Positions 7,374-52,922 of a stretch of DNA of 64,000 nt are shown here, piece after piece; positions within the stretch are counted from its first letter, which is position 1, and every line of letters begins with the position of its first letter. Position numbers and translations under genes: made by a program. Below the pieces are notes generated by a model, which saw only the letters and a list, made by a program, of their open reading frames with translations, searched no databases and was not told the origin of the DNA. Source of the DNA: an uncultured delta proteobacterium (GTDB lineage: Bacteria > Desulfobacterota > Binatia > UBA9968); assembly GCA_963847445.1 (NCBI GenBank), contig CAWJZV010000046.1, forward strand, positions 32,001-96,000, read 5' to 3'.

Positions 7374-9245
<1,872 letters not shown>

Positions 9246-19827: not shown

Positions 19828-19904
19828 TTGGGACGGCGCCGCTTATTATGTTGCCGACGCCATGCCCGCGGGATCGCCAGGCATACGCGATTGATTGACG
19901 GATA

Positions 19905-20912
19905 ATGGGAGAAACCATGTTGAGTCTAAGAAGTTGGCTGATTTGTTTTGCTGTTGTGGCCGTTTTCGCCGCTCCGGCGCTAGCACAAAGCCTGCCTAAA
20001 GTCCGCGCCGCCTATACTTCTATAGGCATCCAATTCGATCCGGTTTACATCATGAAGGAGCTTGACCTGCCGCGTAAGCATGGCTTGGACGTCGAGGTGC
20101 TGTTTGTTCCGGTGAGCTCAAGAGCGCTTCAGGCGGCATTGGCGGGCGAGATTCAGTTTCTCACCAGTGGCGGCGTGGCCAATATCAACGCGAATGCGAC
20201 TGGCGCCGATTTCGTTGGGCTGACGGCGACGCTTAATACTTTTGCATTCAAGATTCTTGGCGGACCGGAGATTAAGAAGCCGGAACAATTGAAGGGCAAG
20301 AAGGTGGCGATTTCCCGGCTGGGCGGCGCCAGCGATTTTTCCGTCCGCTATGCGCTCACCCACTGGGGCCTGGTACCCGACAAAGACGTTGCCCTTCTCC
20401 AAGTGGGCGGCGAGCCGGAATCGGTTCTGGCATTGCAAAACAAGGCGGTGGATGCGGCGATTTTATCGGAACCCTTCTCCACGGTTGCCACGCGAGCGGG
20501 CGCGGTTGTAGTTGCTGACTTAAGCCAGCTCGGCGTGCCTTACACGATGCATGGATTCGGCGTGCGCAAGAGTTTTATTCGCGCCAATCGTGATGTCGTC
20601 GTCCGATTCATGAAAGCCTATCTCGAAGGCATCTATGTTTTTAAAACCAACAAAGACCTGGCGCTCAACGTCCTGAAAAAATACACGCGGCTCGACGATT
20701 TGTCCCTGGTGCAAGTGTCCTATGACGAGATGTCCCAGCGACTGATCCGCAGGGTTCCCTACCCTGACCGCGAAGGCATTCAGACCATCATCGATCAACT
20801 CGCCAAGACCCGCCCGCAAATGAAAAGTCTAAACCCCAATGACTTCATCGACCCGTCGATCTTGAAGGAAATCGAGGACAGCGGCTTCATTAAAAAGTTG
20901 TATGGAAATTAA
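19905..20912 (+). CDS. NMT1/THI5/SsuA-like substrate-binding protein
   Basis: Signal peptide, KHGLDVE, LKGKKVAISRLG, GLVPDKDV. Confidence 0.88.
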   Translation: MGETMLSLRSWLICFAVVAVFAAPALAQSLPKVRAAYTSIGIQFDPVYIMKELDLPRKHGLDVEVLFVPVSSRALQAALAGEIQFLTSGGVANINANATGADFVGLTATLNTFAFKILGGPEIKKPEQLKGKKVAISRLGGASDFSVRYALTHWGLVPDKDVALLQVGGEPESVLALQNKAVDAAILSEPFSTVATRAGAVVVADLSQLGVPYTMHGFGVRKSFIRANRDVVVRFMKAYLEGIYVFKTNKDLALNVLKKYTRLDDLSLVQVSYDEMSQRLIRRVPYPDREGIQTIIDQLAKTRPQMKSLNPNDFIDPSILKEIEDSGFIKKLYGN

Positions 20913-21790
20913 TTGATTACGGTTTCCGACCAGCAATCAAATGTGATTGCTCGCCTGCACATGGTTCAGAAACGATTGTCAGGACTGTCGGGTCCGAGCC
21001 CGCGGACTCCGCCGATGTACTTGAAGCCCTAAACGCTGCCGCTCGGGCAAATCATGTGATGATTTTGTGCAAACTATCTGAAGGGCTACACCGAGGTAAA
21101 AAGGGCCGGATTTCTCCAGTCCTCGTCTTTTTACTAGGTAACGCGTCACGTTGCGTCTCCAGGCTCCCCGTGCTGCGCGGGACCAATGAGAAAGCACGGA
21201 TTGAATGCTCCTCTTTACTTGGAGCAAAGGCACGCTGAGCCTTGCGTCTTTTTTTGTCGGCTTTGATTGCTTCCATGGATTGACGCCTTCCTACTTGTGA
21301 GAAAAGCAAGCTACGTACCAAAACCGACACTTATGCAATATCGATGGGTTAGAAGGTAATGTGTCTCCTAGGGGACATTTTTTGAGACAGATTTGCGATA
21401 TTGAAGGATATTCTCGTACAAATTTGGTCCATGTCTGCCATCTACTGAGCCAATCCGATCGTTTCTTTCCCGTCATGCTGGGGCTGATCTTGCGCGTCAC
21501 CGCGCCGAACTTGCAGGTCACCGCATCTGTAAGGTTATTGATCGGTGTGTCCATGTCGGTGACTGCACGCCGTTACGGAAGTAGTTAAAATCCGCACATC
21601 CTCGATCAGTCGCTGGAAATATTCGCCGTACTGACTGGTGTCGAAACTGTTTGGCGTGTTGCGTGGTGACTCCAAAATCGGCGCGACAAATTCTCATTGC
21701 GGTCAGTCGCAGGGCCGTGCTAAAGGCTCCGTAGGTGATGGGTTAACGTGGATATTTACTCGATTCCGTGCCGTGAAAGGGCTGTGAAAA

Positions 21791-22816
21791 ATGAAGAATG
21801 CCTCCTTCCGTCCGACCGTGAGCTTTCGCTTTAGCGCAATGCTGTTTGTCGGCTACTTGCTGGGCGGTGAAGTCTTTGCGCAAGTTCCATCCGCCAAGCC
21901 CGAAAAAAATCAGCTAGAGGTCGCGATCGCGGCATGGGGGGCGACATCGATTCCCACGGCGGTTGCGCTCGATGGCGGGTACTTTGCCAAGCATGGCCTG
22001 GCTGTGAATATTTCCGTGGTGGCGGCGAGCACATCGGTGCAGGCACTGATCTCGGGTAGAGTCGATATTTATCAAGGCGGCGCCACGGCGATCGGCGGCA
22101 ATCTCGGTGGGGCCGATATCATTTACGTCGGTGCTTCGGTGGATAAGAGTTCTCTGATGTTGCTTAGCCAAAAGGGCTTGACATCGTTCGAGCAATTCCG
22201 CGGCAAGACGATCTCGACAACCTCTCCCGGCGCGTTCGGCGAAATCGTCGTGCGCATGACGGCGCGCAAACATGGCATGGAAGTGGGCAAAGATGTGAAG
22301 CTGATCTATCACCGGACGCCCGGGGAAGCTTTGTCGACCTTTCTGGTTGGCAATGCCGACGGTTTGGTGATCGGCCCGCCGCACACCGATCTGGCCAGGC
22401 AAAAAGGCGCCACGGTGGTCGTCGACTATTACAAAGAAGGGGTGAAAATCATCGGTCCGGGCACCGCGGTGATGCGGGAGTTTGCTCAGAAAAATCCGAA
22501 TACGATCAAAGCCTATTTCATGGGGCATCTCGACGGCCTGAAACGCGCCATCGATGACGAGGAGTATGCAAAAAAGCTTGACACCAAGTATTCCAAGATT
22601 ACCGACGCAGCGTTACTCGCCGAAAATTACCGGCAAGGCTTGCGGGTCTGGAACAAAGACATGAGCGTCGATCCGGCGGCGATTCGCGTGGTGCTCGAAA
22701 ACTCACCGGACGACAAGGGAAAAGGCGCCGACCCGAAGCGGTTTTATGACAACTCGATAATCCAGGCGGTCAATCGCGATTACGCTTCGAGGCTATTCCC
22801 TGGGGAAGTGAAGTAG
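21791..22816 (+). CDS. NMT1/THI5/SsuA-like substrate-binding protein
   Basis: Signal peptide, GYFAKHGLAV, RGKTI, VGKDV. Confidence 0.85.
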   Translation: MKNASFRPTVSFRFSAMLFVGYLLGGEVFAQVPSAKPEKNQLEVAIAAWGATSIPTAVALDGGYFAKHGLAVNISVVAASTSVQALISGRVDIYQGGATAIGGNLGGADIIYVGASVDKSSLMLLSQKGLTSFEQFRGKTISTTSPGAFGEIVVRMTARKHGMEVGKDVKLIYHRTPGEALSTFLVGNADGLVIGPPHTDLARQKGATVVVDYYKEGVKIIGPGTAVMREFAQKNPNTIKAYFMGHLDGLKRAIDDEEYAKKLDTKYSKITDAALLAENYRQGLRVWNKDMSVDPAAIRVVLENSPDDKGKGADPKRFYDNSIIQAVNRDYASRLFPGEVK

Positions 22817-22954
22817 GGCAGGGCGGATAGCTTGTTTCGGCGGAAATAGAGAACTGGTTCGCGCGTAACGGAACGACTAGGGAATGTCAGTGAGACATGG
22901 ATAGATTGCAAAGTACCCAGTCTGTTTAGAAAGTAAGGCGTGGCCCTGGCCCCG

Positions 22955-23258
22955 GTCACTGCGCGCCCATGTCGAGGGCGCGGTGCGCGGCATGAAAGAC
23001 AAAGCCTTCGCGATCAAGACCATGGGCAAGTATTTTCGCACCGACGACAAAGAAGTGCTCGACGAAACTTACGAGTTGAGCATCAAGACCGGCTTCACCG
23101 TGCCGCCGTATCCGGCGGGCATTCCCGGTCTGTTGCAAGACTTGGAAAGGACTACGCCCAAAGCTAAAACCGCCAAGCCTGAGGAGTTCATCGACAACCG
23201 GCTAGTGCGTGAGATGGATCAGAGCGGGTTTGTGAAGTCGCTGCTGGCGGGGAAGTGA
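22955..23258 (+). pseudogene. 5'-truncated NMT1-type substrate-binding protein
   Basis: Only the C-terminal third is present (LRAHVEG...KYFRTDD...PEEFIDNRLVREMDQSGFV). Confidence 0.7.
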
Positions 23259-23372
23259 GCGGAGCTGAACGGCGACGATAATATTCGAATAGAAATTACC
23301 AAGCCACACCGGTTCGTCTCTCTGCCAGCGATGAAATCATCGGGGAATTTTGAAAAAGCAGCTTAGCAATGG

Positions 23373-24956
23373 CTACAGGTCGTTGCCTGCGTAAGACATA
23401 TTAAAGCTTTTATTCACAGCGGAAAATCGGGCACGATGTTTTTGAGCAGGGCAAACGAGAGCGCGGGCCAGTTCGACAAATGACGGGTCTTTGACTTTCA
23501 CGCGGTAGAGTTTGCCTTCGCGGTCAACCATCACCCAGTGCAGGATCGCGCCGCGCCAGCCTTCGACCATCCCGAAGGCCGGTTCGAAAGCGGGCAGTGA
23601 ACCGAGCGGATTGGCAATCGCGCCGTCGGGCATTGCCGCGAGCGCCTGCTTGATCAGACTCACCGACTCGCGGACTTCTTCGACGCGCACCATCGTCCGC
23701 GCGTGCACGTCGCCCGACTCGAACACCGGCACGTGGAACTTCAGCGCGCTGTACGCCGCAAAGGGATGATCGCGCCGCACATCAACGTCCAGGCCCGAGG
23801 CGCGCGCCACGTAGCCCAGCACGCCGTGATCGGTCGCCGTCTTGAGGGTCAGACGACCCGCGCCCTCCAGGCGATCCATCAGCATGGTGTTGCTCAGGCT
23901 GATGTCGACGATTTCGTTGAAGTCGGCCAGGATCGAATCGAGTTCACGCGCCAGATCAAGTCCGATCGGCAGATCGTGGCCCACGCCGCCCGGCACGATC
24001 CCGCCGCGCAGCAGCCGGTTGCCGGTCAGGCGTTTGTTCAAGCGCAGCAGCCGCTCGCGGATGCGGAAGCAGTGCGAGTGGGCGACGGCAAAGCCGGTGT
24101 CGTTGCAGATCTCGCCGAAGTCGGCGATGTGGTTGTAGAGCCGTTCCATCTCCAGCAGGATGACGCGCAGATACTTGGCGCGGGCAGGCACGTCGCAGCC
24201 GGCCAGCGCTTCCACCGCCTGGCAGTAGGCCAGCGAATGACCGATGGTCGTGTCGCCGGAGATGCGCTCGGCCAGTTCCACGCCATCGGCCGGCGCAGCG
24301 ACCTTCGAAGAGTTTCTCCGTGCCTTTGTGCGTGAAGTAGAGGCGAATCTTCAGATCGATCACCGTCTCGCCGACCACGCTGAAGCGGAAGTGGCCCGGC
24401 TCGATGATGCCGGCATGCACCGGCCCGACCGGAATCTCGTAGACGCCCTCGCCGCCCACCGGCAGGAAGGGAAACGGCGTGCCGTCGTCCTCGAATTTCT
24501 CCGGCGGCGACGGCGTCTTTGCGCAGCGGAAAATAATCTTCCGGCCAGAAAGCGTGGCGCACCAGCGGGCGGGGATCGGGGTGGTCCATGGCTTCGATGC
24601 CGAACAGATCTTTGATTTCACGCTCGAAGCGCGAGGCCGGATAATAGAAGGTCGCCATCGAAGCGATGGTCGGGTCTTCGGCGGGCAGGTTTTTCGTGGC
24701 GTGCACGAACCAGTTCTCGCGGTCGTTGGCGAAGAGATAGTGGACTTCAAACACGCCCTTGTCGGCGCGGCGGTCGTTGGCGACCATCAGCCGCAGTTCG
24801 GCGTTGAAATCGGCGCGGAGAATCTTCGCCAGGTTGAGCGCATCGCCGCGCGCAATTTGAAAGTGCAATTCGTTGCCACGCAGGATGTGGACATTTTTGA
24901 CGCGGTTTTTGAAATTTGTCCGCAAGCGCGGCTTGGAGTTGGGTGAAGTTGGTCAT
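23373..24956 (-). CDS. hyfG: Ehr/Hyf large subunit (NuoC+NuoD-like) lacking NiFe cysteines; frameshifted
   Basis: FEREIKDLFGI, PVGPVHAGIIEPGHFRF, HKGTEK, ERISGDT, ELERLYNH-like, VEGWRG, NKSFNMSYAGNDL. Confidence 0.9.
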
Positions 24957-26468
24957 TTTGAAATAATCCCCACACTTTGATTGAGCAAGGTCGCCAGCGG
25001 CGCGGGCAGGGTCAGACCGAGCGTGACCAGCACAGCCACGTTAATCAACAGCAAGCGCAATGCGCCACGAGAAGCGTTCCGCCGGGCGTTCTGTGTTTAT
25101 TTCTTCTTCCGATGGCGTGCCGTACAGCATCTTGTTCAGATGACTGATGAACGAGACAAAGACCACCGCCAGCAGAGCCAGCGCCGCGCCCATCAGCCAG
25201 GGATGGTTGAGCGCGAAACCGGCGCGGAAGAGGGCGAACTCCGCGATAAAGATGCCGCCCGGCGGCAGGCCGATCAGGGTCATCAAGCCAACGGCGAACA
25301 GCGCGCCCGTCCACGGCATGGTTTTGAGCAAGCCGCGCGTTTTTGCGATCAGCGGCGATCTGTATTTGTGTTCGATGTTATCCACCAGGAAGAACATCAG
25401 CGACTTGGCGGCGGTGTGATTGACCAGATGCAACAGCGCGGCGAATGTGCCCAGCGGCCCCAGCGCCAGGCCGAGACAGATCAGGCCGGTATGTTCGATG
25501 CTGGAATAGGCCAACATGCGTTTGTAGTTCGTCGCCAGCACCACGCTGAAGGCGGCGATCAAGCAGCGAGAGCAGACCGAGCGCCATGAGCAGGTTGTTG
25601 GTGTAGCCAACTGCCCAGGGTCGCATCGGCCACCACCTTCCAGCGCAGAAGCGCGTACATCGCCACCGCGAACAAAGCCGACGACATCAGCGCGGTCAGC
25701 GGCGCGGGCGATTCGCCGTAGGCATCCGGCTTCCAGGTGTGCATCGGCGCGATGCCGGCCTTGGTCCCGTAGCCGATCAGCAGGAAGACAAACGCCAGGC
25801 GCATCACTTCGGGATGCAGGGAGGGCGCGGTGGCGAACAGCACGGTCCAGTTGAGGGCGTTTTCCGCGCGCCCCGACAGTGAGACAAAATCGAAGTAGGC
25901 CAGCACCGTGCCGGCAAAGGCCAGCGCGATGCCGACCGAGCCGATCAGGATGTATTTCCACGAGGCTTCGACGGAGGCTTTGTTGAGTTTGAGCGGGATG
26001 ATGAAGGCCGAAAATATGGTGGTGGCTTCGATCGCGATCCACATCACGCCGACGTTGTTGGCCGAGACCGCCAGCAGCATCGCGGCGATGAACAGGTTGA
26101 TGAAAACGTGATAGCGGCGCAATTGGTTGGGACCGTAAGCCAGTTCGCCCCAGTGCGGATTTTGGATCGGGCGCCCGAGGCCGGGGCTGAGAAATAATGT
26201 CAGCGTGGCAACGGCTGTCACGCACACCATCAGCAGGGCGGAGAGACTGTCGGCGCGCAGAACCTCGTCGAGGTTGAGCCATTCGAGCTTGAGTCCCCAG
26301 GTTGGGGTCTGACCGCCGATGACTTGCGCCACGAAGCCAAATGCCGCGCCGAGCGAAATAAGCGAAAGCCACGCGCCAATCCAGCCGACCAAGGCGCGAT
26401 ACGGGCGGACGAGAGACGCCAATCAAGGCGGCGAGTAAGGGAGGCAAAATCAGGAAGAAGAAAGTCAT
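24953..26468 (-). CDS. hyfF: Hydrogenase-4 subunit F-like antiporter subunit (frameshifted)
   Basis: WIAIEATT, EASWKY, GYGTKAGIAPMHTWKPDA, KRMLAYSSIEH, NHTAAKSLMF; ATGA overlap with the large subunit. Confidence 0.9.
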
Positions 26469-26478
26469 GGAGAGTCTC

Positions 26479-27140
26479 TCAGTGTTTGAGTTCGTTCAAC
26501 TGGTCAACGTCAATGGATTCAAACGTGCTGTGAATGTGATAGACAAAGACCTGCATCACGAGAAAGCCCATCAGCACGTCGAGGAACACGCCCAGTTCGA
26601 CGATGAGCGGGATGCCGAAGGTGCCCAGCACGGCCAGCAGGGCGATGCCATTCTCCATCACCAGAAAGCCGACGATTTGGGTCAGCGCCTTCTTGCGCGT
26701 GATGACGACGAATAGCCCGACGAAGATCAAGCCCCATCGCCAGCGGCAAGCCGCCGCGCGTGGGCAAGTCGCTGACCAGGACCAGCGGACGGGTGATAGC
26801 GTAGGCCAGCAGCACGAGCAGTCCGGCCAGGATCAGCGAGGTGGCCACGTTAACGTAGGGCTGTAGCTCGCGCTCGATCGCCAAAGCGTTTTTCCATACG
26901 CTCCAGATAGCGCGGCAGGATGAGGACCTTGAGAACGAAAAGCACAGCGGCGACAAAATACAGTTCCGGATCGTGGCCGAAGTAGCCAATGATGACAAAC
27001 ATAACCGTCAGCGCGGCCGACTGCCATTGAAAGACGCTCGTGTAAGCGTGCAAACTTTTGCGCCACAGCAAGGTAATGCCAAATAGCAGGACTACGCTGG
27101 AGCCGAGGGTGGAGAGTTGAGAGAAGAGGCTATCGTTCAT
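26479..27140 (-). CDS. hyfE: Hydrogenase-4 subunit E-like membrane protein (frameshifted)
   Basis: KVLILP, RKKALTQIVGFLVMENG, PLIVELG..LD. Confidence 0.88.
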
Positions 27141-27151
27141 AGGTTATCCGT

Positions 27152-27203
27152 GTAGCGCGAGATTCATCTCGCTTTATTTGGTGCGAGTTAAATCTCGCGT
27201 TAC
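27152..27203. repeat. Inverted pair of GTAG-type REP-like palindromes
   Basis: GTAGCGCGAGATTCATCTCGC ... GCGAGTTAAATCTCGCGTTAC between hyfC and hyfE. Confidence 0.6.
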
Positions 27204-28142
27204 TTCAAAAGAAATGACGACGTGACCGCCAGCAGTGCCAGCACAAACGACATGCCCAGCAGTTCCGGCACGCGGAACAGGCGCAGTTTGGCGATGCGCG
27301 TTTCAACCACGGCTACCACTACAGCCCAACATCGCAAGTTTGAGAATGAGCGTCACGACAGCAATTGCCAGCGCCGCGGGGGTGAGCGTCAGTCGCCAAG
27401 CCCCACGGCACGAACAGGTTCGCCAGCAGGGAGAAGAAGATGGTCAGTTTCAACCATGACGCCCATTCAATCAGCGCCAGGTAGCGGCCCGAATATTCCA
27501 GAATCATGGCCTCGTGGATCATGGTCAGTTCCAGATGCGTGGACGGGTTGTCCACCGGCAGGCGTCCTGTCTCGGCCAGTGTGACGATGAAGAGCGCGGC
27601 GAAGGCCAGCAGATGACCAGGGCTGAGCGCCGAGCCAGGCTGCGTCAACGTGGCGGTAACGATGTGCCCCAGATTGGTCGAGCCCGCGCCCAGCGCCAGG
27701 CCAAAGATGGCCAGGGCAATCGTCGGCTCGGCGATGGCGGCCACGGTCATCTCGCGGCTGGCACCCATCCCGCCGAAGGCGGTGCCAGGATCCAGTCCGG
27801 CCAGCGCCAGGAAGAAAGTCCCCAGCAGCAGCAGATAGACGACCACCAGCAGGTCGCCGATATCGTCAAAGGGCAGGGGCGCGGCGATGAGCGGGACGAG
27901 GAAAGTCACTGCCACCGCGCTGGCAAAGACGATGTAGGGCGCAAAGCGGAACAGCCACGAGGCGTTGTTCGACATGACCACTTCTTTGCCGAACAACTTG
28001 GCGAGTTCAAAGTAGGGCTGCCGGAGGGCGCGCCGCGCCGATTTTGCAGGCGGGCTTTTACCCAGCGCACAAAACCCACCAGCCCCGGCGCCAGCAGCAG
28101 CGCCAGCAATGCTTGAGAAAATTCGAGAAGATAACCAGTCAT
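27200..28142 (-). CDS. hyfC: Hydrogenase-4 subunit C / HycD (NuoH-like) membrane subunit (frameshifted)
   Basis: KARLQNRRG, FGGMGASRE, AETGRLPVDNP.THLELTMIHEAMILEYSG. Confidence 0.9.
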
Positions 28143-28222
28143 ATCAAAGTCTCCATAGCCGCTGGAGTTTATCGGCAGATTTCGCAGATGGGCCAAAAAT
28201 CGGCGGAATCGGCGGTTTTGTT

Positions 28223-30265
28223 CTAAAACCACCTCGCGGCTAAAAGCAAAATAATCAGAATCACCGTGACATACACCAGATATAAATGGAGCGAACCCGC
28301 CTGCAACCGCCGCACCTGGCGCGCCGCGAATCGCACCAGCCGCAGGAACGGGTCGTACAGCAAGCGCTCGAACAGCGGCGTGATTTCGCTCTTGTATTCG
28401 ATGGACTGGACAAAATATTTCGAGTCGGGGTGGAATTCAATCGTCAACTCTTTGGTCGGGCGGTAAAGTTCGGCGAAGACGCGGCGCAGCGGTTCGGCAA
28501 ACGCAGTGGCGGTGTATTCCATGCGCGGGGTCTGTCCCGTGCGGCCACAGCCCCAGGTGTCGCTCACGCGCAAGCGGCGATTGACGCGCAGAATCCACAT
28601 CACCAGCGGGATGAGCGCGAGGAGCATCAGCAACCCGAGCATAACCAGCGTGGGGGACATTTGCCCAAAAGCGGCAGGAGATCTGCACCGACACGTTAAA
28701 CGTGAAGGTCTGACGCGTATCGGGCAGACCGCCGAGGCCGTTCAGGACTCCGCCGACTACCAACAGCGGCAACGCACCACAAAGGGAGCGGCCAGCGAGG
28801 CCCAGCCCGACGCAAGCCAGCGCCAGGATCGCCCATGCCGATGCGCATCGAGAGCGGCGCCTCGTGGGCGTGTTCCGCTTCGTGGGAACGCGGGATGGCC
28901 AGGAAGGTGATGCCAAAGGCTTTGACGAAGCACGCCGCCGCCAGGCCGCTGGTCAGCGCCAGCATGCCCACCGCGATCGGCATCAACACCGCCACTTCAG
29001 GCACGGGGATGTTGAAGCCGCCCAGCAGGGCTTGAAACACCAGCCATTCCGAGGCAAAGCCGTTGAGCGGCGGCAGGGCCGAGATGGCGGCGGCGCCAAT
29101 CAAGAAGAAGAACGCCGTCCAGGGCATCCGCTTGATCAGCCCGCCCATCTCCTCCATGTTGCGCGTGTGCGTGGCGTGCAGGACCGAACCCGCGCCGAGG
29201 AACAGCAAGCCCTTGAAACTGGCGTGGTTGATGGTGTGATACAGCCCGCCGATGAAACCGAGCGCGGCCAGCGTCATCAGTCCGTAACTGTGGAAGACCA
29301 GCCCCGCGCCGATGCCGATCAGGATGATGCCGATGTTCTCGACCGAGTGATAGGCCAGCAGTCGCTTGAGGTCATGCTCCATCAGCGCATACAACACGCC
29401 GAGCAGCGCCGAGACCGCGCCAATGCTCAAGGACCAGTCCGCCCCACCAGACGGGACCGCCGCCGAGCAAATCCAGCGCCACGCGCATCAATCCGTAAAT
29501 GCCCATCTTGATCACCACGCCCGACATGAGCGCCGAGACGTGACTCGGCGCGACCGGATGCGCCATCGGCAGCCAGATATGCAGCGGCACGATGCCCGCC
29601 TTGGCGCCGAAGCCGAACAACGCCAGCAGGAAAATTGCATCGCGGGTCAGCGGCGCGAGCAAGGCCGAGGTCGAGCGCATAGCCACAAATGAAGCGGTCA
29701 ACTCGCCGCCGGAGAGCAGGAGGAACATCGCCACCAGCGCGGCAAAGCCCGCATGGGTCATGGCAAGATACCAGTTGGCGGCGCGCACCGTGCCAGGCTG
29801 GTCGTTCTCGGTCAGCACCAGCCAGTAGGCCGAGAGCGACATCACTTCCCACATCAGCAAAAAGGTCAGGGCGTTGTCGGCCATCACTTGCAGGCTGAGC
29901 GACAGCAGCAGCACGTTGAGCATCGCGCCGAGCATCCGCAGGGAGTAGCGGCCTTCATAGGCCGCTGAGTAGCCGAAGCCATAGAGCGAAGCGGACGCGC
30001 CGACCAGGCCGATAACGATCAGAAAGAACGCACCCAGCCCGTCGAGCCGTAGGGCAAAGCCTGTCAGCGGTAGAAAAGATGGGATGGAAAACTGAATCAG
30101 CTCACCCGATGCCAGAGCCGCGACTCCCAGAGCGAATCCCGCGCCTGCGCCGATGACCGCTCCCAGCGCGGACAGTCCGCGACTGAGAACGCCGCGTCCA
30201 AAGACCAGCGCACCGACTGCGCCCAAGGCGTAACCTGAAAGCATCAGCAGGAATAGGGACATCAT
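28223..30265 (-). CDS. hyfB: Hydrogenase-4 subunit B-like antiporter subunit, copy 2 (frameshifted)
   Basis: [67 protein letters not shown]. Confidence 0.9.
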
Positions 30266-30292
30266 AAGGTGTAAGCGGTTGGCAAATTTACT

Positions 30293-32370
30293 TTACTGGC
30301 CTGTCCACAACGACGCGACCAGCATCAGTACCAGCATGACGAAAAGATAAGCCACGTAGCCGTGCAGGGAACCGGACTGAAACCGCCGCACGCGCAGGCT
30401 GATCCATTGCGTGACGTCCAGCAACGGCGCGTAGAGAAACTCTTCGAACCACGAGCGGATGTCGCTCTTGTACTCGATGGACTGCACGAAGTATTTGGAC
30501 TCGGGGTGGAAGTCAATCGTCAGTTCTTTGGTCGGGCGATAGAGTTCGGCAAAGACGCGGCGCAACGGTTCGGCAAACGCAGTGGCGGTGTACTCCATGC
30601 GCGGCGTCTGCCCGACGCGGCCACAGCCCCAGGTGTCGCTGACGCGCAGGCGGCGGTTGACGCGCATGACAGCCATCACCAGCGGCGCAAGTCCCAGCAC
30701 GATCAGCAAACTGAGCGCGATCAGCGTCGGCGAGATTTGGGCGAAGCCTTCGGGCATTTGCAGGGAAAGGTCCGCGGAAAACGTCGGCGCGACGGCGGGC
30801 AGTCCGCCTATCCCGGCGACGACGCGCCCCAGGATCGGCACGATGACGGTGGGCGTCAGCCCCAGCAGCGACGCAGGCGAGGACGAGCAACCCCATGCCC
30901 GATCCGCATCGAGAGCGGGCGACTTCGTGCGCGTGCGCGGCTTCGTCCGAGCGCGGGATGGCCAGGAAGGTGATGCCGAAGGCTTTGACAAATCCGGCGG
31001 CGGCCAGACCGCCCGTCAAGCGCCAGCAGCCCGACCGCGAGGGTCATCAGCGCGGCGACAACGGGCTGCGGAATGCTCACGCCTGGCAGCAGCGATTGGA
31101 ACAAGAGCCATTCGCCGACAAAGCCGTTGAGCGGCGGAAGGCCGGCAATCGCCACCGCGCCGATCAGAAAGAACAACGCCGTCCACGGCATCCGCTTGAT
31201 CAGCCCGCCCATCAGGTTCATGTCGCGGGTGTGCGTGGCGTGCAGGACCGAGCCGGCGCCCATAAACAGCAGCCCCTTGAAGGCGGTGTGATTCAGCGCG
31301 TGATACAGCGCGGCGACGAAGGCCAGCGCCGCCGCTGTCGGCAGGCCGCGCGCGCCGAACAGCAATCCCGCGCCGACACCGATAAAGACGATGCCGATAT
31401 TCTCGACGCTGGAGTAGGCCAGCAGACGCTTGAGGTCGTTCTCCATCAGCGCGTACAGAATTCCCAGCAAGGCGGAGACCGCGCCAACGGCCAGCACGAG
31501 CGCGCCCCACCAGGTCGGCCCGCCGCCGAGCAAATCCAGCGCGACGCGCAAAATGCCGTAGACGCCCATCTTGATCATCACGCCGGACATCAACGCGGAA
31601 ACGTGACTCGGCGCGGCAGGATGGGCGCGCGGCAGCCAGACGTGAAGCGGCACGATGCCCGCCTTCGAGCCAAAGCCGAGGAAGGCCAGCAGGAAGATCA
31701 GGTTGCGCGTCGTCGCCGAGAGCGAGGCCGCGCCTGCGCGCAGATCGGCAAACGCGCCCGTCCCGCCATTCATCAGCAGCACAAACGCGGCCAGCAACAG
31801 CGCCAGCCCGGCGTGCGTCATGGCGATGTACCACAAGCCCGCGTTCCGTACTCGCTCTTCGCCTGATTCGGTGATGACGAGAAAGTACGAGGCAAGCGAC
31901 ATGCCTTCCCACATCAGCAGGAACGTGAGCACGTTGTCGGCCAGCGTGACGAGGCTCATCGTCAGCAGAAACAGATTGAACATCACGCCCAGCAAAGGCA
32001 GCGAAGCGCGGCCATCGTTATATGCGGCAGTGTACCCCGCGCCGTACAAGGCGGCAGGGATAGCGCCAACGCCTATGAGGACGAGGAAAAACGCGCCGAG
32101 CGCATCGAGCCGCAAAGCGAGGCCGCCTCCGAGCGGCAAAAGTTCAGGGACGGAAAGTGCAAACGAGGTGCCCGTGGCGATCACCGTTGCCCCAAGCACC
32201 AGCCCCGCGCCGGCGCCGACGACCGCACCGAGCGCCACCAGCCATCGCCCGATCGACTTCCGGCCGCCCATCATTGCGGCGAGAGCGCCAAGCCCGTAGG
32301 CTATGAGCATTAAGAAAAAGAAGCTTTGCATGAAGGTCAAGAAAAAATCCGCGAGTTGGGATTCAATCAT
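30293..32370 (-). CDS. hyfB: Hydrogenase-4 subunit B-like antiporter subunit, copy 1 (frameshifted)
   Basis: [57 protein letters not shown]. Confidence 0.9.
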
Positions 32371-32882
32371 TTTTTGTGCGGACGTCGATCAAGTGCCGCC
32401 AAGATGCCGTTTAGAATATCGGTTGGCTCGGGCGGGCAGCCTAGGACAAACACGTCCACCGGAATAACTTGATCGACACTGCCGATGATCGCGTAGCTGC
32501 CTTTGAAGACACCACAATGTTTCGCGCAATCTCCCACTGCTACCACGAGCTTCGGGGCGGGGGTCGCATCGTAGGTCTTAAGCAGCGGCACTTCCATGTT
32601 TCGAGTCACCGGCCCAGTCACAAGCAGCATATCCGCATGGCGCGGCGAGGCCACAAAGTGAATTCCGAACCGCTCGCTATCGTAAACGGGGCCAGTGAGC
32701 CCGCTGATTTCAATCTCACAGCCGTTGCACGAACCGGCATCCACTTCCCGAATGGCCAAGGCGCGGCCTAGATGACGCTGGATCTCGGCCGCCGTTTTTC
32801 TAACTATTTCAACGAATTTATCCGAGCTGTCGCTCAGCGGCTCGGTCACAAGGCCGGTGCGGAGAATTTTCGAGAACAGCAC
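32367..32882 (-). CDS. Ehr/Hyf small subunit (NuoB-like Fe-S protein)
   Basis: DAGSCNGCE, SPRHAD, VGDC, GCPP; GTG start overlaps the TAG of the upstream ArsR fragment. Confidence 0.9.
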   Translation of the reverse strand: MLFSKILRTGLVTEPLSDSSDKFVEIVRKTAAEIQRHLGRALAIREVDAGSCNGCEIEISGLTGPVYDSERFGIHFVASPRHADMLLVTGPVTRNMEVPLLKTYDATPAPKLVVAVGDCAKHCGVFKGSYAIIGSVDQVIPVDVFVLGCPPEPTDILNGILAALDRRPHKK

Positions 32883-33107
32883 TAGTCGCGTCCCTCCTTG
32901 CGCAGTTCGCGCAGCATGGTTTGCGTATCTTTCAGGTGGTTTTCGAATATGAGGCGAGCAGTTTTGAGTAGATCTCCGACTAGAGGATCCCGGATTGCGT
33001 ACTTGACCGTCGTACCCGAGTTTTCGCGAGGCAACGATATTCTTGCCTCGTAGCACGGCAAGCTGCTGCGAGACTAACGGCTGGTCAACCTTGAGTTCGT
33101 CCTGCAT
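32882..33107 (-). pseudogene. 5'-truncated ArsR-family regulator (Rv0081-like)
   Basis: VSQQLAVLRGKNIVASRK, then Y.IRDPLVGDLLKTARLIF in the shifted frame; N-terminal helices missing. Confidence 0.7.
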
Positions 33108-33311
33108 AAACGATAAAGCTCCCCAATCCTAGAACTACCACCATGGGTTCGACCCTCCACAGGTCGCGTCTTAGTGATCTTGCCTCCCCAAGAGTTAAAC
33201 GGTACTGTTCCACAACTTAGTCCTCAACGTGAGATGACGTTCTTTAATAAAGTTCTTCCCTACGAACAAACTTTTCAGTCAAAGCGTCGGCAAGCCATTC
33301 GCCACAGCTCC

Positions 33312-33647
33312 CTATAGACCGGTAGCTCCTTTAGACTTCAGGTATAGTATTAGCTCTTTATTTAGCCCCTTGGACTCTGAAAAATCAGCTCCGGTTGCTA
33401 TCGCGCCACCGAACACGGTGCCCCTCAGATTTGCTTTTTTGAAGCTGGTGTTGATCAGCATTGTGTCGGATAAATCGGCGTTCGTTAGATCGCTCGCCGC
33501 GAGTTTTCCATAGTTTAACCGGCAACCCTTAAGATTGGCCTGTCTAAGGTCTAAGTTGGAGAGGTCCATGCCGGTGAGATAAAGGTTTCTGAGATCGACA
33601 CCGGCCAGGCTTTCGTGTTTTTCAATTTTTTGTAGAATACGTTTCAT
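33312..33647 (-). CDS. Pentapeptide repeat protein
   Basis: A(D/N)L-type repeats (ANLKG, SDLTN, ADLSD, ANLRG, ADFS). Confidence 0.85.
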   Translation of the reverse strand: MKRILQKIEKHESLAGVDLRNLYLTGMDLSNLDLRQANLKGCRLNYGKLAASDLTNADLSDTMLINTSFKKANLRGTVFGGAIATGADFSESKGLNKELILYLKSKGATGL

Positions 33648-33681
33648 CTCGTTATCTCCCTGCCATCGGTTATTCCGATGT

Positions 33682-34278
33682 CTATGTCGTTGGCGCAGCC
33701 TTTACGACGAAATGCGCGCGCCGATTCTTTGCCCAGCACGCCTCATTTTGCTCCTTGCACAGAGAAAGCTCTTCACCGTAGCTGATTGTCGTCAGCGTAG
33801 CCGGCGAAGTTCCCAGATCGATGAGATAACGCTTCACGCTTTCTGCTCTCTTCGCTCCCAAAGCAAGGTTATACTCACTGGTTCCACGCTCGTCGCAGTG
33901 TCCTTCAATCTGGACTGTGGCTAGAGAATTCGCCTTAAGCCACGCCGCATGACCCTTAAGGATATCCCTGGCTGCTGGACTAAGATCGGAACGATCGAAG
34001 TCAAAGTTGACGTCACGAAGAGGACCTTCGTCAACACCTTTGCCCAAAGTTCCCTTCTGAAGAGCCTCGAGACTTGAGACTTGTGCAGGCTTAGAAGGCG
34101 CCGACGAAGGTGGTTTCTGCGCGGCTGCAACTTTCTGCGGCACGGCTGCCTCTGACGGTTTCGATGCCGTCTGCTGAGAACAACCGACCAAGAGAAATAG
34201 CGCTATGAAAAAAAGGTAAAACCCAGTGAAAGGGTGGGTGCTCTCACTATGATTTGTGTACATTCGATCTACCTCCAT
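33682..34278 (-). CDS. pal: Peptidoglycan-associated lipoprotein, second paralogue
   Basis: Lipobox LVGC; VNFDFD, IEGHCDERGTSEYNLALG, SYGEE, WAKNRRAHF. Confidence 0.9.
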   Translation of the reverse strand: MEVDRMYTNHSESTHPFTGFYLFFIALFLLVGCSQQTASKPSEAAVPQKVAAAQKPPSSAPSKPAQVSSLEALQKGTLGKGVDEGPLRDVNFDFDRSDLSPAARDILKGHAAWLKANSLATVQIEGHCDERGTSEYNLALGAKRAESVKRYLIDLGTSPATLTTISYGEELSLCKEQNEACWAKNRRAHFVVKAAPTT

Positions 34279-35709: not shown

Positions 35710-37319
35710 TCATCGGAGCTCGACGATGACACCTTCATCGCTGCGCAATTGGATCTCGTCGCCAAGTTGCTCCTGGCTCCGGTCGAGATGAGTTGAAAGC
35801 AGTAACACGGCCTGTGCGTCGAGAGTGCTCAGGTCGAAGTTACGCGCGTGCGGCACGAAGTTGAGGACGATCAAAAGTCGGCGATCACCGGACTTGCGCA
35901 CGTAGGCCATCACGTTATCGATGACCGGGAGCGAGGCGAATGCGCCGACGGACAAGGCTGGCTCGGCGCGGCGCAGCTCGATGAGGCGGTGATAAAGCGT
36001 GAGAATCGAGTTGGGTTGATCGCGCAACGCGCCGACGTTGATGGTTTTGCAGTCATCGGCGAGCGGCAGCCAGGGCGAGCCGGTCGTAAAGCCGGCGCAA
36101 TCGCCGCCGGTCCATTGCATCGGAGTGCGCACTGGATCGCGACCGAGGCCTAGGCCGGGAACGTTCTTTCTCGAAAGGATCGCGCACCTGATCCGGCGCA
36201 ATCGACACATCGTGCATGCCGAGTCTCATCGCCGTAGTAGATCGTCGGCGTGCCGCGCAAAGTCAGCAGCAGCATCGCCGCCACGCGCGCTTGCGCGGCG
36301 CCGACCCGGGTGGCGATGCGCGGCTTGTCGTGATTGCCGAGCACCCAGTTGGGCCAGGCATACGACGGCAGCATCGCTTCGTAGCGCTCGACCGCGGCGG
36401 CAACATCTATTGCGTTCCAGGACAAGCGAATCAGTTGAAAATTGAATGGCAGGTGCGCTCCCTTGCCGCTTGCGCCGTAGTAGGCCATCAGCCGTTCCAG
36501 CGGAAGATAGATCTCGCCGACTAACATGCGATCGTCGTATTCGTCGATCACCGCGCGCATCATGGCGACGATTTCTTGCACTTCCGGGCAGATCCGCCGT
36601 GTACGTCGTGAGCAGCTCGCGATACGGGCGACATGCCTGGGCGGAAATCCGGGTTGGGCGGATTGTCGCGGTACTAGCGTGTCTTTCGCGAGATGGTGCA
36701 TGACGTCGACGCGAAAGCCATCGACGCCGCGATTGAGCCAAAAGCGCAGCACGTCGAGCATCGCTTGCCGCACTTCGACATTGCGCCAGTTGAGATCGGG
36801 CTGCTCTTTGAGGAACGCGTGATAAAAATATTGCTCAGTTGCTTCGTCCCATGTCCAGGCCGCGCCACCGAAGTTGGAGCGCCAGTTGTTCGGCGGCCCG
36901 CCCTCCGGAGCGGCATCGCGCCAGATATACCAGTCGCGTTTCGCGCTGGAGCGCGACGATTTCGCTTCGATGAACCAGGGATGGCGATCCGAAGTATGAT
37001 TGGGAACGTAGTCGAGCAACAGCTTCATGCCGCGGGCGTGCACCTCGGCCAGCAACGCGTCGAAGTCTGCCAGCGAGCCGAAAATCGCATCGATATCGGT
37101 GTAGTCGCTGACGTCGTAGCCGAAATCGGCCATGGGCGAGGGATAGATCGGCGAAATCCAGATCGCGTCTACGCCGAGCCATTGCAGGTAGTCGAGCTTC
37201 TGGCGAATCCCGGCCAGATCGCCGATGCCGTCGCCGTTGCTGTCCATAAACGAGCGCGGATAGATTTGGTAAACGATGCCGCGCTCCCACCAGTGAAATG
37301 ACTGTTCGGTTGAGTTCAT
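35710..37319 (-). CDS. GH13 alpha-glucosidase / oligo-1,6-glucosidase family (frameshifted)
   Basis: YQIYPRSFMDSNGDG.GD, DYVPNHTS, QPDLNW, GFRVDV, VGEI, GNHD, YYGDE, RDPVRTPMQW. Confidence 0.92.
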
Positions 37320-39012: not shown

Positions 39013-40015
39013 GTGAAGTGCTTATTGGCTGGCTCGCTATCGTTTTCGCTCGCATTGCTTGTATGTTCATTGCGCCCGGGCCGATGCCGCGGCGCCACTG
39101 ACGAAAGTGCTCCTTACCACCGGTTCGTCGAGCGAGCGGGAAGGTGCGCTGTATGTCGCCCAGGACCTAGGTTACTTCCGTAAGTATGGTCTCGACGTTA
39201 CCCTGGTGCAGGTGCGCAACGGCCCGGTCGGCATGGCGGCGCTCAGTTCCGGCGAGTCGCTACTCCATTGGGGCTCGGTGTCGGCGGCGAATCTCGGCGC
39301 GATCGCCGAGGGCGCCGACTTAGTTTTCGTCGCCGGCTTCATCAATCGCTTGACCGGCGCCTTTGCGGCTAATCCAAAGATCAAGACGCCGGCAGAGTTG
39401 AAGGGGCGAAGCGTCGGCGTCAACAGCTTGAGCGGCGGCACTTGGATCTTTACCATGCTCGCCCTCGATCACTGGGGGCTGGTGCCGGAGCGGGACAAGA
39501 TTCAAGTCCGCGCGCTGGGCGACAATTCGGTGGTCTCGCAGGCGCTTCTCGCCGGCAATGTCGACGCTGCTTATCTGAGCTACACCTACGCCAAGATCGT
39601 CCAGAACAAGGGCTTCCGCGTGCTTGCCGATTTGGAGAAATTGCCCATCGCCTACCAGGGCACCGGTATCATCACAAGACGAAGCACCATCGCTTCCGCA
39701 TCGTCGTCTACGGCGATTGAAAACGTCATCAAAGGATTGCTCGACGGCGTCGCCTTCATTCGCAATCCGGAAAATAAGCCGCAGGTCATCAAGAGCTTGG
39801 CCAAAGGTCTGCGGCTCAAACGCATCGAAGACGCCGACGAAGGCTATCAAAACATGCTCGGCATCTACGAAAGAAAAATTTATCCCAATGCTGACGGCGT
39901 GCGCAACGTCATCCGCCTGCTCGGCGCCGGCAACGAAAAGATCCGCCGCCTCAAGGCCGAGGAATTGGTCGACGATAGCGTGGTGAAAAGGTTGGAAAAG
40001 GATGGGCGGTTCTAA
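39013..40015 (+). CDS. NMT1/THI5/SsuA-like substrate-binding protein
   Basis: GYFRKYGLDV, LKGRSVGV, GLVPERD; frameshift in the signal peptide. Confidence 0.85.
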
Positions 40016-47579: not shown

Positions 47580-48441
47580 TCAATCGCAATACCGGCCCAG
47601 CACGTTGGGACCGTCCAAGACGCATTGGAGCGGTTCGTATAACTCGCCGCTGTGGATGCTCGCCAACTCGACGCGGCCGAGATGGGGCGCTGAGCGTTGG
47701 TGGCGGCTCTCGCTCTCATAGCTCGCCGGTTCGACCAAAAAGGGTCAGCAGATGGTTCGCCAGTTCGATGCGCGAAATGACTCGCGTGGCCGAGACATGG
47801 CGAATGCCGGCTTCGCCGCTCTCGGCCATCCGCATCACGCGCAATGCCAAATCATGGGCCCAAACCACCGAGCGATATTCGTCGTGAACTATGGTCACCG
47901 GCAGATTCTTGCCGATGCGATAGCGCAGCCAATCCCAGTGGCCGGTGCGACCATTGGGCGATGGACCGATCGCCAAACCGACGCGGATGACCAACGAGCC
48001 GGGCCGGGCCAGAACCATTGCTTCGGCCTCCACCCGCGTTCTGCCGTAAACGCTGATCGGACAGGGCCGCGAGTCTTCATCGTAGACACCGTCGCCGCCA
48101 AAGACGTGATCGGAGGAGACGTAGACGAGCCGCGTTTTGTCCGGCAATGCGTCGAGCACCCGTTTGAGATAAACGATATTCACTTCGCGCGCCCAATCGG
48201 GTGCGACTTCGCAGCGCGGCACATCGCACACCGCATGGCACTGAATGAATAATTCGGGTTGGTGCTGTTCAAAAACCGTCGCCGGCCACGCCGGATCTTC
48301 CAGATTCAACACCGGCCATCGGCGGATGGTCTTCGCCCGGTTGGCGCGGGTGACAAACGGCAAAACCGTGTCGGGGAACAAATTGGCGATGCCATAGCCG
48401 AGGATCGACGTGGCGCCGAAAAGCAGGGTGGAGGGGGGCAT
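47580..48441 (-). CDS. RmlD-like extended SDR / sugar-nucleotide-binding protein (frameshift near 47730)
   Basis: FGATSILG, VSSDHVF.G, Y.E...P.P.SVYGRTR (K->R in YxxxK). Confidence 0.75.
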
Positions 48442-48452
48442 TGAGCCTAAAC

Positions 48453-48713
48453 TTATGCTGGCGATTTACTCGGATGATTCTTCTGGTCGTGATTTTTCGC
48501 GTTGAGGATTGCTTCGCCCCGCGAGGTTAACACTACCTGCGGATCGTTAGGTTGTCGATTGATCTCGATCAACCCCTCGATAATCGCGTCTTCCCAAATC
48601 GTCTGTCTCGGACAGTGGCTCTGCCACGCTTCCATGGCTTCGTCGTAGGTGCGCGGGCGATTTGCTACCCAGGAAAGAAACTCTAACATCAGAAGATCCT
48701 GCGATTCCGCCAT
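48453..48713 (-). CDS. Small hypothetical protein (possible winged helix)
   Basis: Compact ORF co-oriented in the operon; GLIE...LTSRGEAIL. Confidence 0.6.
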   Translation of the reverse strand: MAESQDLLMLEFLSWVANRPRTYDEAMEAWQSHCPRQTIWEDAIIEGLIEINRQPNDPQVVLTSRGEAILNAKNHDQKNHPSKSPA

Positions 48714-48742
48714 GGCCTTATTAAGTTTAGAAAACCCTACGA

Positions 48743-49714
48743 TTACTTTCCATACAACTTTGCAATATAGCCACTTTTGTCGATTTCTTCGATCAGGCTT
48801 CCATCCATCACATCTTTTGCAAGCGTCAGTTTGGACTTCGGCGATTTGACCGAATCCATGACCGCTTGCACGCCTTTGGCTTCGGGGAACGGTCGTTCGC
48901 GCATGGCGGCGGCGACTCTCGGGTAGCTGTACTCAGGGCCTTTGATGCCTTCGGCGCGGAGGACGGACATCGCCAGCTCTTTGTTGGTCTTGAAGACGTG
49001 AATGCCTTCGATCAATCCCTCGACGAATTTGCTCAAGAGTTCACGTTTGCTGCGCAAGAATTGGGTCGGCACAACCTGGCCGAAGCGGGCGTAGTCGATG
49101 GGCAGTTCCAACATGTCGACCATGACGCGGCAGCAGCCGGAATCGGTGATGATCGGCACGTCGTAGGTGCCGAGCAACGTGCCGTGCAGTTGGCCGGCGA
49201 TCATGGCCGGAACGCGGGTTGTTCCCGTCGCTTGAATAATGCGCACGTCCTTTTCCGGATCGAGGTTGAACTGGCGCAGCAGCATGCGGGTGGTGACATC
49301 CGATGACGAACCGAAGCGGCTGATGGCAACTTGTTTGCCCTTTAGATCTTCCGGCGTCTTGATGTCGTTGCGCACGACGAAGGCGAAGGGGAAACGATTG
49401 ATATAGACACTGATCAGTTTGCCATCTAACGCGCCGACGGACACGGCATTCAACATGGCCGGTACGTCGGAGTCGGCCAGGTCCAGGTCGCCGCCGACCA
49501 TCGCCTGCGCCATGGTCGCGCCGCTGGTGAAATAAATCAGCCGCACGTCGAGGCCGCGCTTCTTCCAGAGTCCGGCGCGCTCGATGGTCTTGTGCAGATT
49601 CTTCGCCACGCCGGTGCCGCTGTAGCCGACGCGGACGAGTTGTTGGGCGGGGGTGGGGGATGCGATGAGCAGCGCTACGAATAAGCTCGGTAGTAAATAC
49701 TTGACTTGCAGCAT
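48743..49714 (-). CDS. NMT1/THI5/SsuA-like substrate-binding protein
   Basis: Signal peptide, KKRGLDV, DLKGKQVAISRFGSSSD, LDPEKDV. Confidence 0.88.
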   Translation of the reverse strand: MLQVKYLLPSLFVALLIASPTPAQQLVRVGYSGTGVAKNLHKTIERAGLWKKRGLDVRLIYFTSGATMAQAMVGGDLDLADSDVPAMLNAVSVGALDGKLISVYINRFPFAFVVRNDIKTPEDLKGKQVAISRFGSSSDVTTRMLLRQFNLDPEKDVRIIQATGTTRVPAMIAGQLHGTLLGTYDVPIITDSGCCRVMVDMLELPIDYARFGQVVPTQFLRSKRELLSKFVEGLIEGIHVFKTNKELAMSVLRAEGIKGPEYSYPRVAAAMRERPFPEAKGVQAVMDSVKSPKSKLTLAKDVMDGSLIEEIDKSGYIAKLYGK

Positions 49715-49792
49715 CGTTGTTCCTTTTCGTAAGGGGTAAGGGTAGAGTCAGGAGTTCGGATCCGAAACGCCTCACCCTTTACCCTTTACGCC

Positions 49793-52915: not shown

Positions 52916-52922
52916 TTCTGCT

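Follow-up and report, generated by a model that had tools for sequence, protein, structure and literature searches.

An uncultured delta proteobacterium of the Binatia (Desulfobacterota; UBA9968) carries an operon for an energy-converting hydrogenase-related (Ehr) complex in which hyfB, the gene for an antiporter-like pump subunit, stands as two tandem copies. The operon lies in a 64,000-nt stretch of contig CAWJZV010000046.1 (assembly GCA_963847445.1, positions 32,001 to 96,000), referred to here as the window; all positions are counted from its first letter. We found that the two copies are strongly diverged in their N-terminal parts, that both keep the residues of a complete pump together with a nearly identical ND3-like coupling loop, and that the pair recurs as two separate ortholog groups in related genomes. 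Our preferred reading, to which we assign a probability of about 0.4, is that each copy occupies a position next to the redox head, the operon making either a complex in two variants or a dimer with two heads.

Two complete hyfB genes in tandem

The initial annotation had placed two full-length HyfB genes back to back, and both proved complete when read through their frame breaks. Copy 1, which we call the upstream type, lies on the minus strand at 30293..32370, starts with an ATG at 32370, stops at 30293-30295 and encodes ~677 aa when four frame changes are read through (frames -2 / -3 / -2 / -3 / -1). Copy 2, the downstream type, follows on the same strand at 28223..30265 after a gap of 27 nt; its ATG is at 30265 and its stop at 28223-28225, and reading through three frame changes (frames -1 / -2 / -3 / -1) gives ~670 aa. 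Pfam family PF00361 was matched by copy 1 (3.1e-58) and by two fragments of copy 2 (8.2e-21 and 2.5e-24), all of which exceeded the cut-off of 21.5 bits. The copies share 436/662 residues (66%) in protein and 1407/2042 positions (69%) in DNA; because identity is only this high, we judge them to be diverged true paralogs rather than an assembly repeat. Paired copies measured 677 and 673-675 aa, against 672-679 aa in single-copy relatives, indicating no lengthening.

The charged-residue and C-terminal arm motifs named in the initial annotation were present in the translations of both copies (LMWE, (S/A)KAGIVPLH, LKRLLAY, PPLNGF..EW and the arm motif ending in ELYRP). In an alignment of 34 HyfB sequences, 82 columns were invariant and 189 were conserved at >=90%; copy 1 kept 81/82 and 185/189 of these, respectively, and copy 2 kept 82/82 and 189/189. 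Alignment with Escherichia coli HycC showed that the buried pump charges are retained in both copies, namely the Glu of TM5, the Lys of TM7, the Lys of TM8, the His/His/Lys of TM11 and the Glu of TM12. The invariant columns include the equivalents of HycC E135, H215, H222, K239, H328, H332, K336, E391 and K433, for which we follow the roles given in sections of PMC9474812. The equivalent of HycC C430 is likewise kept by the HyfB family and by both copies, and a Lys stands in the family and in both copies where HycC has Leu208. Each copy is predicted to be a complete, functional pump subunit.

Divergence between the copies is unevenly distributed, in agreement with what the initial annotation had described. 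The proportion of nonsynonymous differences (pN) between the window copies was 0.27 in the N-terminal part and 0.05 in a 74-codon core of the C-terminal arm, where the proportion of synonymous differences (pS) was 0.37 and DNA identity 184/211 (87%). The N-terminal 60-90 residues diverged strongly between the paralogs, with a pN of 0.43-0.44. Both copies follow the same domain plan, an antiporter-like core followed by an ND3-like module of transmembrane helix (TMH) 15, loop, lateral helix and TMH16, and this module is ~95% identical between them. When compared with database proteins, copy 1 was 90-92% identical to P0001. Copy 2 matched P0025 best, with 69% identity over about the first 275 residues (29372-30265), 97.5% over the next 200 (28696-29430) and 94% in the tail; the N-terminal part of P0025 was nearer to copy 1 (75%). 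This mosaic of copy 2 could reflect fast evolution of helices 1-6 or a past recombination between the paralogs.

Identity of the near-identical arm

A profile built from the 34 HyfB sequences matched E. coli HycC (7z0s_C) with an E value of 3.4e-114 over HycC 9-568, and the Cys of TWGCG aligned with HycC Cys537. The family profile was needed for this, since single-sequence phmmer searches of the two C-terminal tails against the PDB gave chance-level matches only and did not reach HycC. We identify the near-identical stretch, on homology, as a predicted ND3-like coupling loop. According to passages of PMC9474812, residues 500-608 of HycC are homologous to ND3 of complex I, Cys537 sits in a pocket made by HycD Phe122 and HycE His188, and TMH15 and TMH16 have a short lateral helix between them. 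Parts of the same report and of PMC7684303 describe how, in formate hydrogenlyase (FHL) and in the hydrogenase-related sulfane sulfur reductase that is bound to the membrane (MBS), the loop inserts where the membrane anchor meets the large subunit. Three loops are presented there as coupling the redox chemistry to the movement of ions, this being one of them, with one site for it per redox head.

An AlphaFold2 model of the intact upstream-type HyfB from a paired relative (L015) had a mean predicted local distance difference test (pLDDT) score of 74.5 and showed helices at 533-553, 626-652 and 654-673, with a low-confidence loop between the first two. The top structural match of this model in a Foldseek search was again 7z0s_C, with TM scores of 0.73/0.81.

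Selection on the two copies and on the loop

Across seven ortholog pairs each, upstream-type genes had a ratio of nonsynonymous to synonymous substitution rates (dN/dS) of 0.115-0.194 and downstream-type genes one of 0.128-0.241. These values, 0.12-0.24 overall, point to both paralogs being maintained by purifying selection, the outcome that the initial annotation had named as support for its reading. Columns 571-630, compared between the paralogs and averaged over nine genomes, had a pN of 0.05-0.08, and their pS of 0.46-0.53 was like that of the rest of the gene. Gene conversion was considered as the source of the near-identical arm and rejected, given a pS of 0.46-0.53 in the nine genomes and 0.37 in the window against a pN of ~0.05. 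The protein sequence of the loop thus appears to be held by selection in both copies while synonymous sites drift.

Some changes in the loop were common to both paralogs of the same genomes, namely S or T before WGCG, KELT versus K/Q/R-DLS, and YK versus YR. Over 50 variable loop columns, the paralogs agreed in 261/450 comparisons within genomes versus 1843/3600 between genomes, a modest excess. Such agreement fits two loops that track one partner surface, and it also fits old conversion events.

The pair is conserved across related loci

When one genome per species was scanned with copy 1, 551 matches were confirmed; the best 80 of them, representing 78 loci, were kept. Two tandem hyfB genes were found in 13 of the 78 loci, so the hyfB-hyfB-hyfC-hyfE-hyfF order noted in the window recurs in related genomes. 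Twelve of these pairs fell among the 34 loci of the window's own subclade. Writing S for the small-subunit gene, G for the large-subunit gene and B, C, E and F for the hyf genes, we found the complete S-B-B-C-E-F-G order in seven loci (L015, L017, L022, L025, L033, L034 and L039). This order was cut at its end in two loci (L004 and L032) and cut earlier in three more (L029, L035 and L037). The subclade also held 17 clean S-B-C single-copy loci, and five loci were left unjudged owing to contig ends (L001, L003, L009, L018 and L023). Based on start-codon calls, the gap between the paired genes was 0-25 nt in eight of nine complete pairs. The thirteenth pair (L048, 5044-9021, from a metagenome-assembled genome (MAG) of Planctomycetota) is separate and distant: its copies are 44% identical, both keep TWGCGY..RMQYT, and it belongs to a subfamily in which the small-subunit gene stands last, on a contig that ends 342 nt past the second copy.

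Phylogenetic analysis placed the two copies in different clades. The FastTree analysis had 86 rows, with the fragmented L030, L062 and L063 left out, as were rows shorter than 590 aa (L023, L054, the second copy of L029 and the first copy of L035). An upstream clade of 15 rows contained window copy 1, 11 upstream copies, L001, L003 and L026, while a downstream clade, also of 15 rows, contained window copy 2, 11 downstream copies, L013, L018 and L021. Both clades had 100% support in FastTree and in an IQ-TREE analysis of 47 rows, and they shared the same internal branching, one mirroring the other. The pair is, on this evidence, old and conserved. IQ-TREE gave the paralog clades no firm position relative to the single-copy Chloroflexota and Binatia-type clades, and the pair may therefore have originated either through duplication in place or through a related gene being inserted.

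Three loci had one hyfB gene of the paired types standing between S and C: an upstream-type gene only in L026, and a downstream-type gene only in L013 and L021. All three were nested among paired relatives. We take L026 to have lost the downstream type, and L013 and L021 the upstream type, secondarily; either copy can therefore presumably serve alone.

The hosts named in the records were Chloroflexota, Acidobacteriota, KSB1, Methylomirabilota and Verrucomicrobiota, with one record labelled Nitrosotalea. Such a spread suggests that the operon as a whole has been transferred, or that binning errors occurred. The locus from the record labelled Nitrosotalea sp. (L033) had the complete S-B-B-C-E-F-G order, and its HyfB copies fell inside Methylomirabilota on short branches, suggesting either a binning error or a recent transfer. 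Ehr genes are noted in Nitrosotalea in a passage of one review. Another Binatia MAG (L006) carried a single-hyfB operon of a different clade. Among the 120 protein matches listed, 74 were neither upstream- nor downstream-type, and most of these matched single-copy references best, at 87-90%.

The operon encodes an Ehr-type complex

The operon lies on the minus strand and was mapped by tblastn with intact proteins from a related locus (L002) as references. It reads, in order, a fragment of an arsR gene, a nuoB-like gene, hyfB, hyfB, hyfC, hyfE, hyfF and a hyfG-like gene, the last seven forming the Ehr set. With both HyfB copies, the full set comes to ~3,300 residues. The subunit set of the group 4 type is complete (PF01058, PF00329 plus PF00346, PF00146, PF00361 and PF00420). 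In an alignment of the large subunit with HycE (7z0s_E, E 3.2e-39), RVCGICGFAHS of HycE corresponded to RISGDTTIGHS in the window, that is, the NiFe motif CGIC is replaced by SGDT. No CxxC was found in the last 45 residues of the large subunit in the window or in the 56 loci listed, a search made without residue-by-residue alignment of the C-terminus to HycE. Because SGDT stands where HycE has CGIC, the complex is predicted to be of the Ehr type and not a hydrogenase; the initial annotation had likewise called it Ehr, and both the CGIC to SGDT change and the missing CxxC agree with that. The features of a true group 4 [NiFe] hydrogenase or of FHL-2 (Hyd-4) were absent, namely the NiFe cysteines, HyfD, HyfA/HyfH and a formate dehydrogenase.

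Portions of PMC10432482, PMC10284858 and PMC6349859 define Ehr by group-4-hydrogenase-like genes whose large subunit is without the CxxC NiFe ligands, and describe its function as unknown. The Ehr complexes of Nitrospira, ammonia-oxidizing archaea, Margulisbacteria and others have the same gene set and the same missing CxxC ligands as the complex in the window. Unlike the window operon, the descriptions in those portions contain no mention of two HyfB-type subunits. A partner that feeds electrons to the complex was sought in the flanks of seven paired loci: a Pfam scan of these flanks turned up no Fer4-type gene, FdhF gene or third kind of antiporter gene, and no electron-input partner was conserved there, the ArsR regulator alone recurring. 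The initial annotation had set the pair against canonical Ehr operons with one HyfB plus HyfF, such as Rv0082-0087 of Mycobacterium.

The small-subunit gene (32367..32882, minus strand) encodes a NuoB/HycG-like protein with one [4Fe-4S] site (PF01058, 1.5e-29). It starts with GTG preceded by AAGGAGG, was 75% identical to its L002 ortholog in a single frame over 32373-32879 by tblastn, and has four Cys in its translation (C..C, C, C); its stop codon overlaps the ATG of hyfB copy 1 (ATGA). Downstream of the hyfB pair and on the same strand follow hyfC (27200..28142), encoding a NuoH/HycD-like membrane anchor (PF00146, 2.3e-37), and hyfE (26479..27140), encoding a NuoK-like small membrane subunit whose match to PF00420 (6.3e-05) is under the curated cut-off. 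The hyfC gene has three frame changes, and its pieces, in frames -3/-2/-3/-1, were 54-93% identical to L002 HyfC; hyfE has two and was 77-83% identical to L002 HyfE across three frames (both by tblastn). Next is hyfF (24953..26468, minus strand, two frame changes), which matched PF00361 in two fragments and encodes a second kind of antiporter-like subunit without the ND3-like tail, 74-85% identical to L002 HyfF by tblastn and ~29% identical to HyfB. The hyfG-like gene (23373..24925, minus strand) closes the operon and encodes a large subunit of fused NuoC- and NuoD-like parts without NiFe cysteines (PF00329 and PF00346); it has two frame changes and a compensated pair near the C-terminus. Searches of 23000-33200 with Pfam and tblastn found no Fer4-type subunit, FdhF, Mrp-type/MbsA-C gene or third kind of antiporter. 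Directly upstream of the single-hyfB operon of L002, a 699-aa open reading frame (ORF) at 7236-9335 showed no similarity to the operon proteins.

At the 5' end, the fragment of an ArsR-family regulator gene (32883..33128, minus strand) was identified by BLASTP against the ArsR protein (HTH_5) that precedes the L034 operon, with 18/31 residues identical and an E value of 2e-10. The fragment is frame-shifted, its 82-aa piece in the window had no match in Pfam, and it ends in a TAG (32884-32882) that shares bases with the GTG at which the small-subunit gene starts. An ArsR gene stands immediately 5' of the small-subunit gene in three paired loci (L022, 9104-9493; L034, 9145-9486; L039, 659-1021), and an ArsR-type regulator may control the operon. 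A promoter scan of 22800-33800 gave two promoter-like sites versus 2.5 expected, which is at chance level, and none lay between the hyfB genes. Terminator-like matches in the same interval fell within coding sequence and were uninformative.

Comparison with the closest known systems

The best match to the HyfB copies in both sequence and fold was HycC of E. coli FHL-1 (PDB 7Z0S/7Z0T, chain C), which shares their plan of a 14-helix antiporter-like core and an ND3-like tail with a conserved Cys (Cys537). FHL-1 has one HycC-type subunit and FHL-2 has one HyfB together with HyfD and HyfF, whereas the window operon has two HyfB and no HyfD. It differs from FHL also in that its large subunit is without NiFe cysteines and that it encodes neither a HyfA/HyfH-type ferredoxin subunit nor a formate dehydrogenase.

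A partial precedent for the pair is found in the MBS of Pyrococcus furiosus, a respiratory complex with a duplicated H-type subunit (MbsH and MbsH'). In sections of PMC7684303, both MbsH and MbsH' are proposed to be proton pumps and the module running from TMH15 through the loop and lateral helix to TMH16 is found in the head-proximal MbsH' alone; the length of the lateral helix matches the number of pumps spanned, that of MbsH' spanning both. In the window, by contrast, the module is present in both copies and the helix is short. The HyfB profile matched both MBS chains of 6U8Y (X, 2.4e-53; H, 3.8e-36). MBS further differs in having an Mrp-type sodium module (MbsA-C, D, E and G), of which the window operon has no MbsA-C homologs, and its pair is archaeal and much more diverged than the HyfB pair.

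Two other systems bear on the comparison. In the "2M" complex I, reportedly described by Chadwick et al. in 2018, a second NuoM is said to have arisen by duplication and to give a higher pumping stoichiometry; the lateral helix of NuoL is reportedly lengthened there, and the duplicated subunit is said to lack an ND3-like loop. The window pair resembles that system in having an extra antiporter-like subunit and differs in showing no lengthening and in having the loop in both copies. In cyanobacteria, NDH-1 isoforms arise from alternative NdhD/NdhF paralogs on a shared core, encoded at separate and separately regulated loci. This is the kind of solution that we favor here, but the hyfB genes are adjacent in one operon. 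We found no description of a tandem or duplicated hyfB in Ehr in the literature searched, a search that did not take in the papers that established Ehr (Marreiros et al. 2013; Batista et al. 2013). Duplicated pump subunits are familiar in the superfamily; a conserved pair in which both members keep the coupling loop is not. The initial annotation had spoken of an undescribed architecture, which holds so far as no account of tandem hyfB in Ehr was found, while the principle has a precedent in MbsH/MbsH' of MBS.

Placement of the two copies in the complex

Our observations concern gene anatomy, conservation, selection and loop homology, and from these we infer where the proteins would sit. In the preferred reading, each copy would take the head-proximal position next to HyfC, and two variants, HyfC-HyfB(up)-HyfE-HyfF and HyfC-HyfB(down)-HyfE-HyfF, would be formed that differ in the fast-evolving outer helices of the pump. 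Alternatively, a two-headed dimer would hold one HyfB of each type. Neither arrangement would have a single longer arm. Both copies keep a loop for which there is one site per head, and this argues against a simple longer arm. The extended three-antiporter arm put forward in the initial annotation was accordingly not supported as stated, since both copies retain the once-per-head module and neither is longer than its single-copy relatives. That annotation had offered alternative complexes as a second option besides the longer arm, and this second option fits at least as well as the first. A more specific form, in which each HyfB docks to its own head in an obligate two-headed Ehr heterodimer or in which the copies are co-expressed, distinct isoforms (differing, e.g., in ions or coupling ratios), we regard as doubtful. 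If true, it would represent a new route in the superfamily to diversify coupling, by duplicating the head-proximal, ND3-fused pump rather than by adding distal pumps.

Several points weigh against each copy being head-proximal. The loop is the least confident part of the structural model, with pLDDT <50 for 555-625. Its conservation could reflect a second role, and the parallel substitutions could go back to gene conversion so old that its synonymous trace is no longer visible. Given the tight co-transcription in a fixed order, with no promoter-like site found between the genes, the two look as if they were produced together for a single assembly and not as isoforms under separate regulation. 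We know of no case in the superfamily of alternative subunits encoded in one operon. Frame breaks in the operon are denser than in some neighbors such as the intact dxs, which leaves some weight to decay of the operon in this one genome. Finally, the solved multi-antiporter relatives (MBS, Mrp and complex I) all place their pumps in series in one arm, according to parts of PMC7684303. A complex prediction with the cores (residues 1-495) of the upstream and downstream HyfB of L015 scored 0.00; it was run without controls and counts neither way on binding. The other checks that the initial annotation had proposed turned out in its favor.

The principal alternative is that both HyfB copies stand in series in one arm, HyfC-HyfB-HyfB-HyfE-HyfF, giving three antiporter modules and more ions per turnover, in the manner of MbsH'/MbsH or NuoL/M/N. 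We consider this a real possibility, though short of an even chance. Tight linkage of the hyfB genes, their co-transcription in a conserved order and the mirrored phylogenies all suit it, as does the retention of every pump residue in both copies; a gene dosage of 1:1:1 with hyfC would likewise suit a single complex. MBS, in the portions of PMC7684303 already cited, has its duplicated H subunit in series, and the number of pumps is related there to the energy conserved. In MBS, however, the module with its lengthened lateral helix is confined to the proximal MbsH'; the window pair carries the module in both members, whose length does not exceed that of single-copy relatives. A distal copy would carry a loop with no head to contact, yet the loop is equally constrained in both (pN 0.05-0.08). 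Moreover, either copy has been lost in one or more relatives (the downstream type in L026, the upstream type in L013 and L021), and therefore neither appears tied to a unique position.

Frame breaks and the remaining alternatives

The tblastn frames gave at least 14 frame changes over the seven operon genes in ~9.5 kb, with extra compensated shift pairs in copy 1 and at the end of the large subunit. Taken as real lesions, these would mean that this genome holds the operon, or one of its hyfB copies, as a pseudogene. We think this improbable, even though the breaks are denser than in dxs (1.9 kb), a GMC oxidoreductase gene and a DUF2130 gene, which are single intact ORFs in the window. Genes split alike over two or three frames include tlyA/FtsJ, dnaG, rpoD, an alpha-amylase gene and ubiD (2294-3047, 5627-6917, 7344-9242, 35713-37319 and 49845-51207, respectively), dnaG and rpoD being essential. 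All seven homologous hyfB pieces are free of in-frame stops, the invariant and conserved columns are kept almost without exception, and several of the operon's shifts are cancelled by another within tens of bases. Instead of being confined to one copy, the lesions affect both copies and all the neighboring genes. Because other genes are split in the same way, stops are absent, invariant residues are kept and shifts are compensated, the frame breaks look like errors of an indel-rich assembly and not like gene decay. The first break in each hyfB copy (~29430 and ~31019) resembles an extra T when the copies are aligned with each other (CTGA to CTTGA), and base calling may have erred systematically in this one sequence context. 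Frame-aware handling is called for in any ORF-based reading of the window, all of which comes from this indel-rich assembly.

That one HyfB has a role apart from the Ehr complex, e.g., as a cation/proton transporter acting alone or with other partners, is more improbable still. PF00361 antiporter-like proteins are reused elsewhere, as in the DAB2 complex according to part of the literature, and the strong difference between the paralogs in the N-terminal 60-90 residues would suit separate duties. The head-docking ND3-like loop is strongly constrained in both copies, however, and would be needless in a lone transporter, and the flanks of seven paired loci show no conserved gene for another partner. 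We give almost no credence to a chimeric join or mis-assembled repeat as the source of the second copy: errors in the assembly, seen as frame shifts throughout the window, speak for it, but the copies are only 69% identical in DNA, each has its own orthologs, and the same layout occurs in 12 independently assembled genomes.

Genomic surroundings

The G+C content of the operon is 0.62-0.64 versus 0.53-0.58 in its flanks, and the paired operon of the window was closest to sequences from other phyla. The raised G+C together with nearest relatives in other phyla hints at horizontal acquisition of the operon. The Dxs protein encoded in the window, by comparison, was 99-100% identical to proteins of Candidatus Binatia bacterium, in line with a Binatia genome. 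Elsewhere in the window (19899-22816, 39017-40012, 47719-54122 and 57551-59630) there are many genes for NMT1/THI5-like and TctC-like solute-binding proteins, which stand with genes for amidohydrolase_2, UbiD-type decarboxylase, tautomerase and GMC oxidoreductase proteins. These solute-binding and decarboxylase genes look like a cluster for the uptake and breakdown of aromatic or organic acids.

Significance

Adjacent "hydrogenase-4 component B" annotations in operons of this kind are real paralogs with separate ortholog groups and not redundancy or mis-assembly. Ehr complexes are widespread, occurring in uncultured soil and groundwater bacteria, nitrifiers and mycobacteria. The intact orthologs available from several phyla make the pair accessible to expression and structure work. 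A head-proximal pump subunit that has been duplicated together with its coupling loop, and of which either copy can be lost, constitutes a natural experiment. It bears on how coupling in the complex I superfamily is related to the number and position of the pumps; the authors of the MBS work explicitly pose this question in part of PMC7684303.

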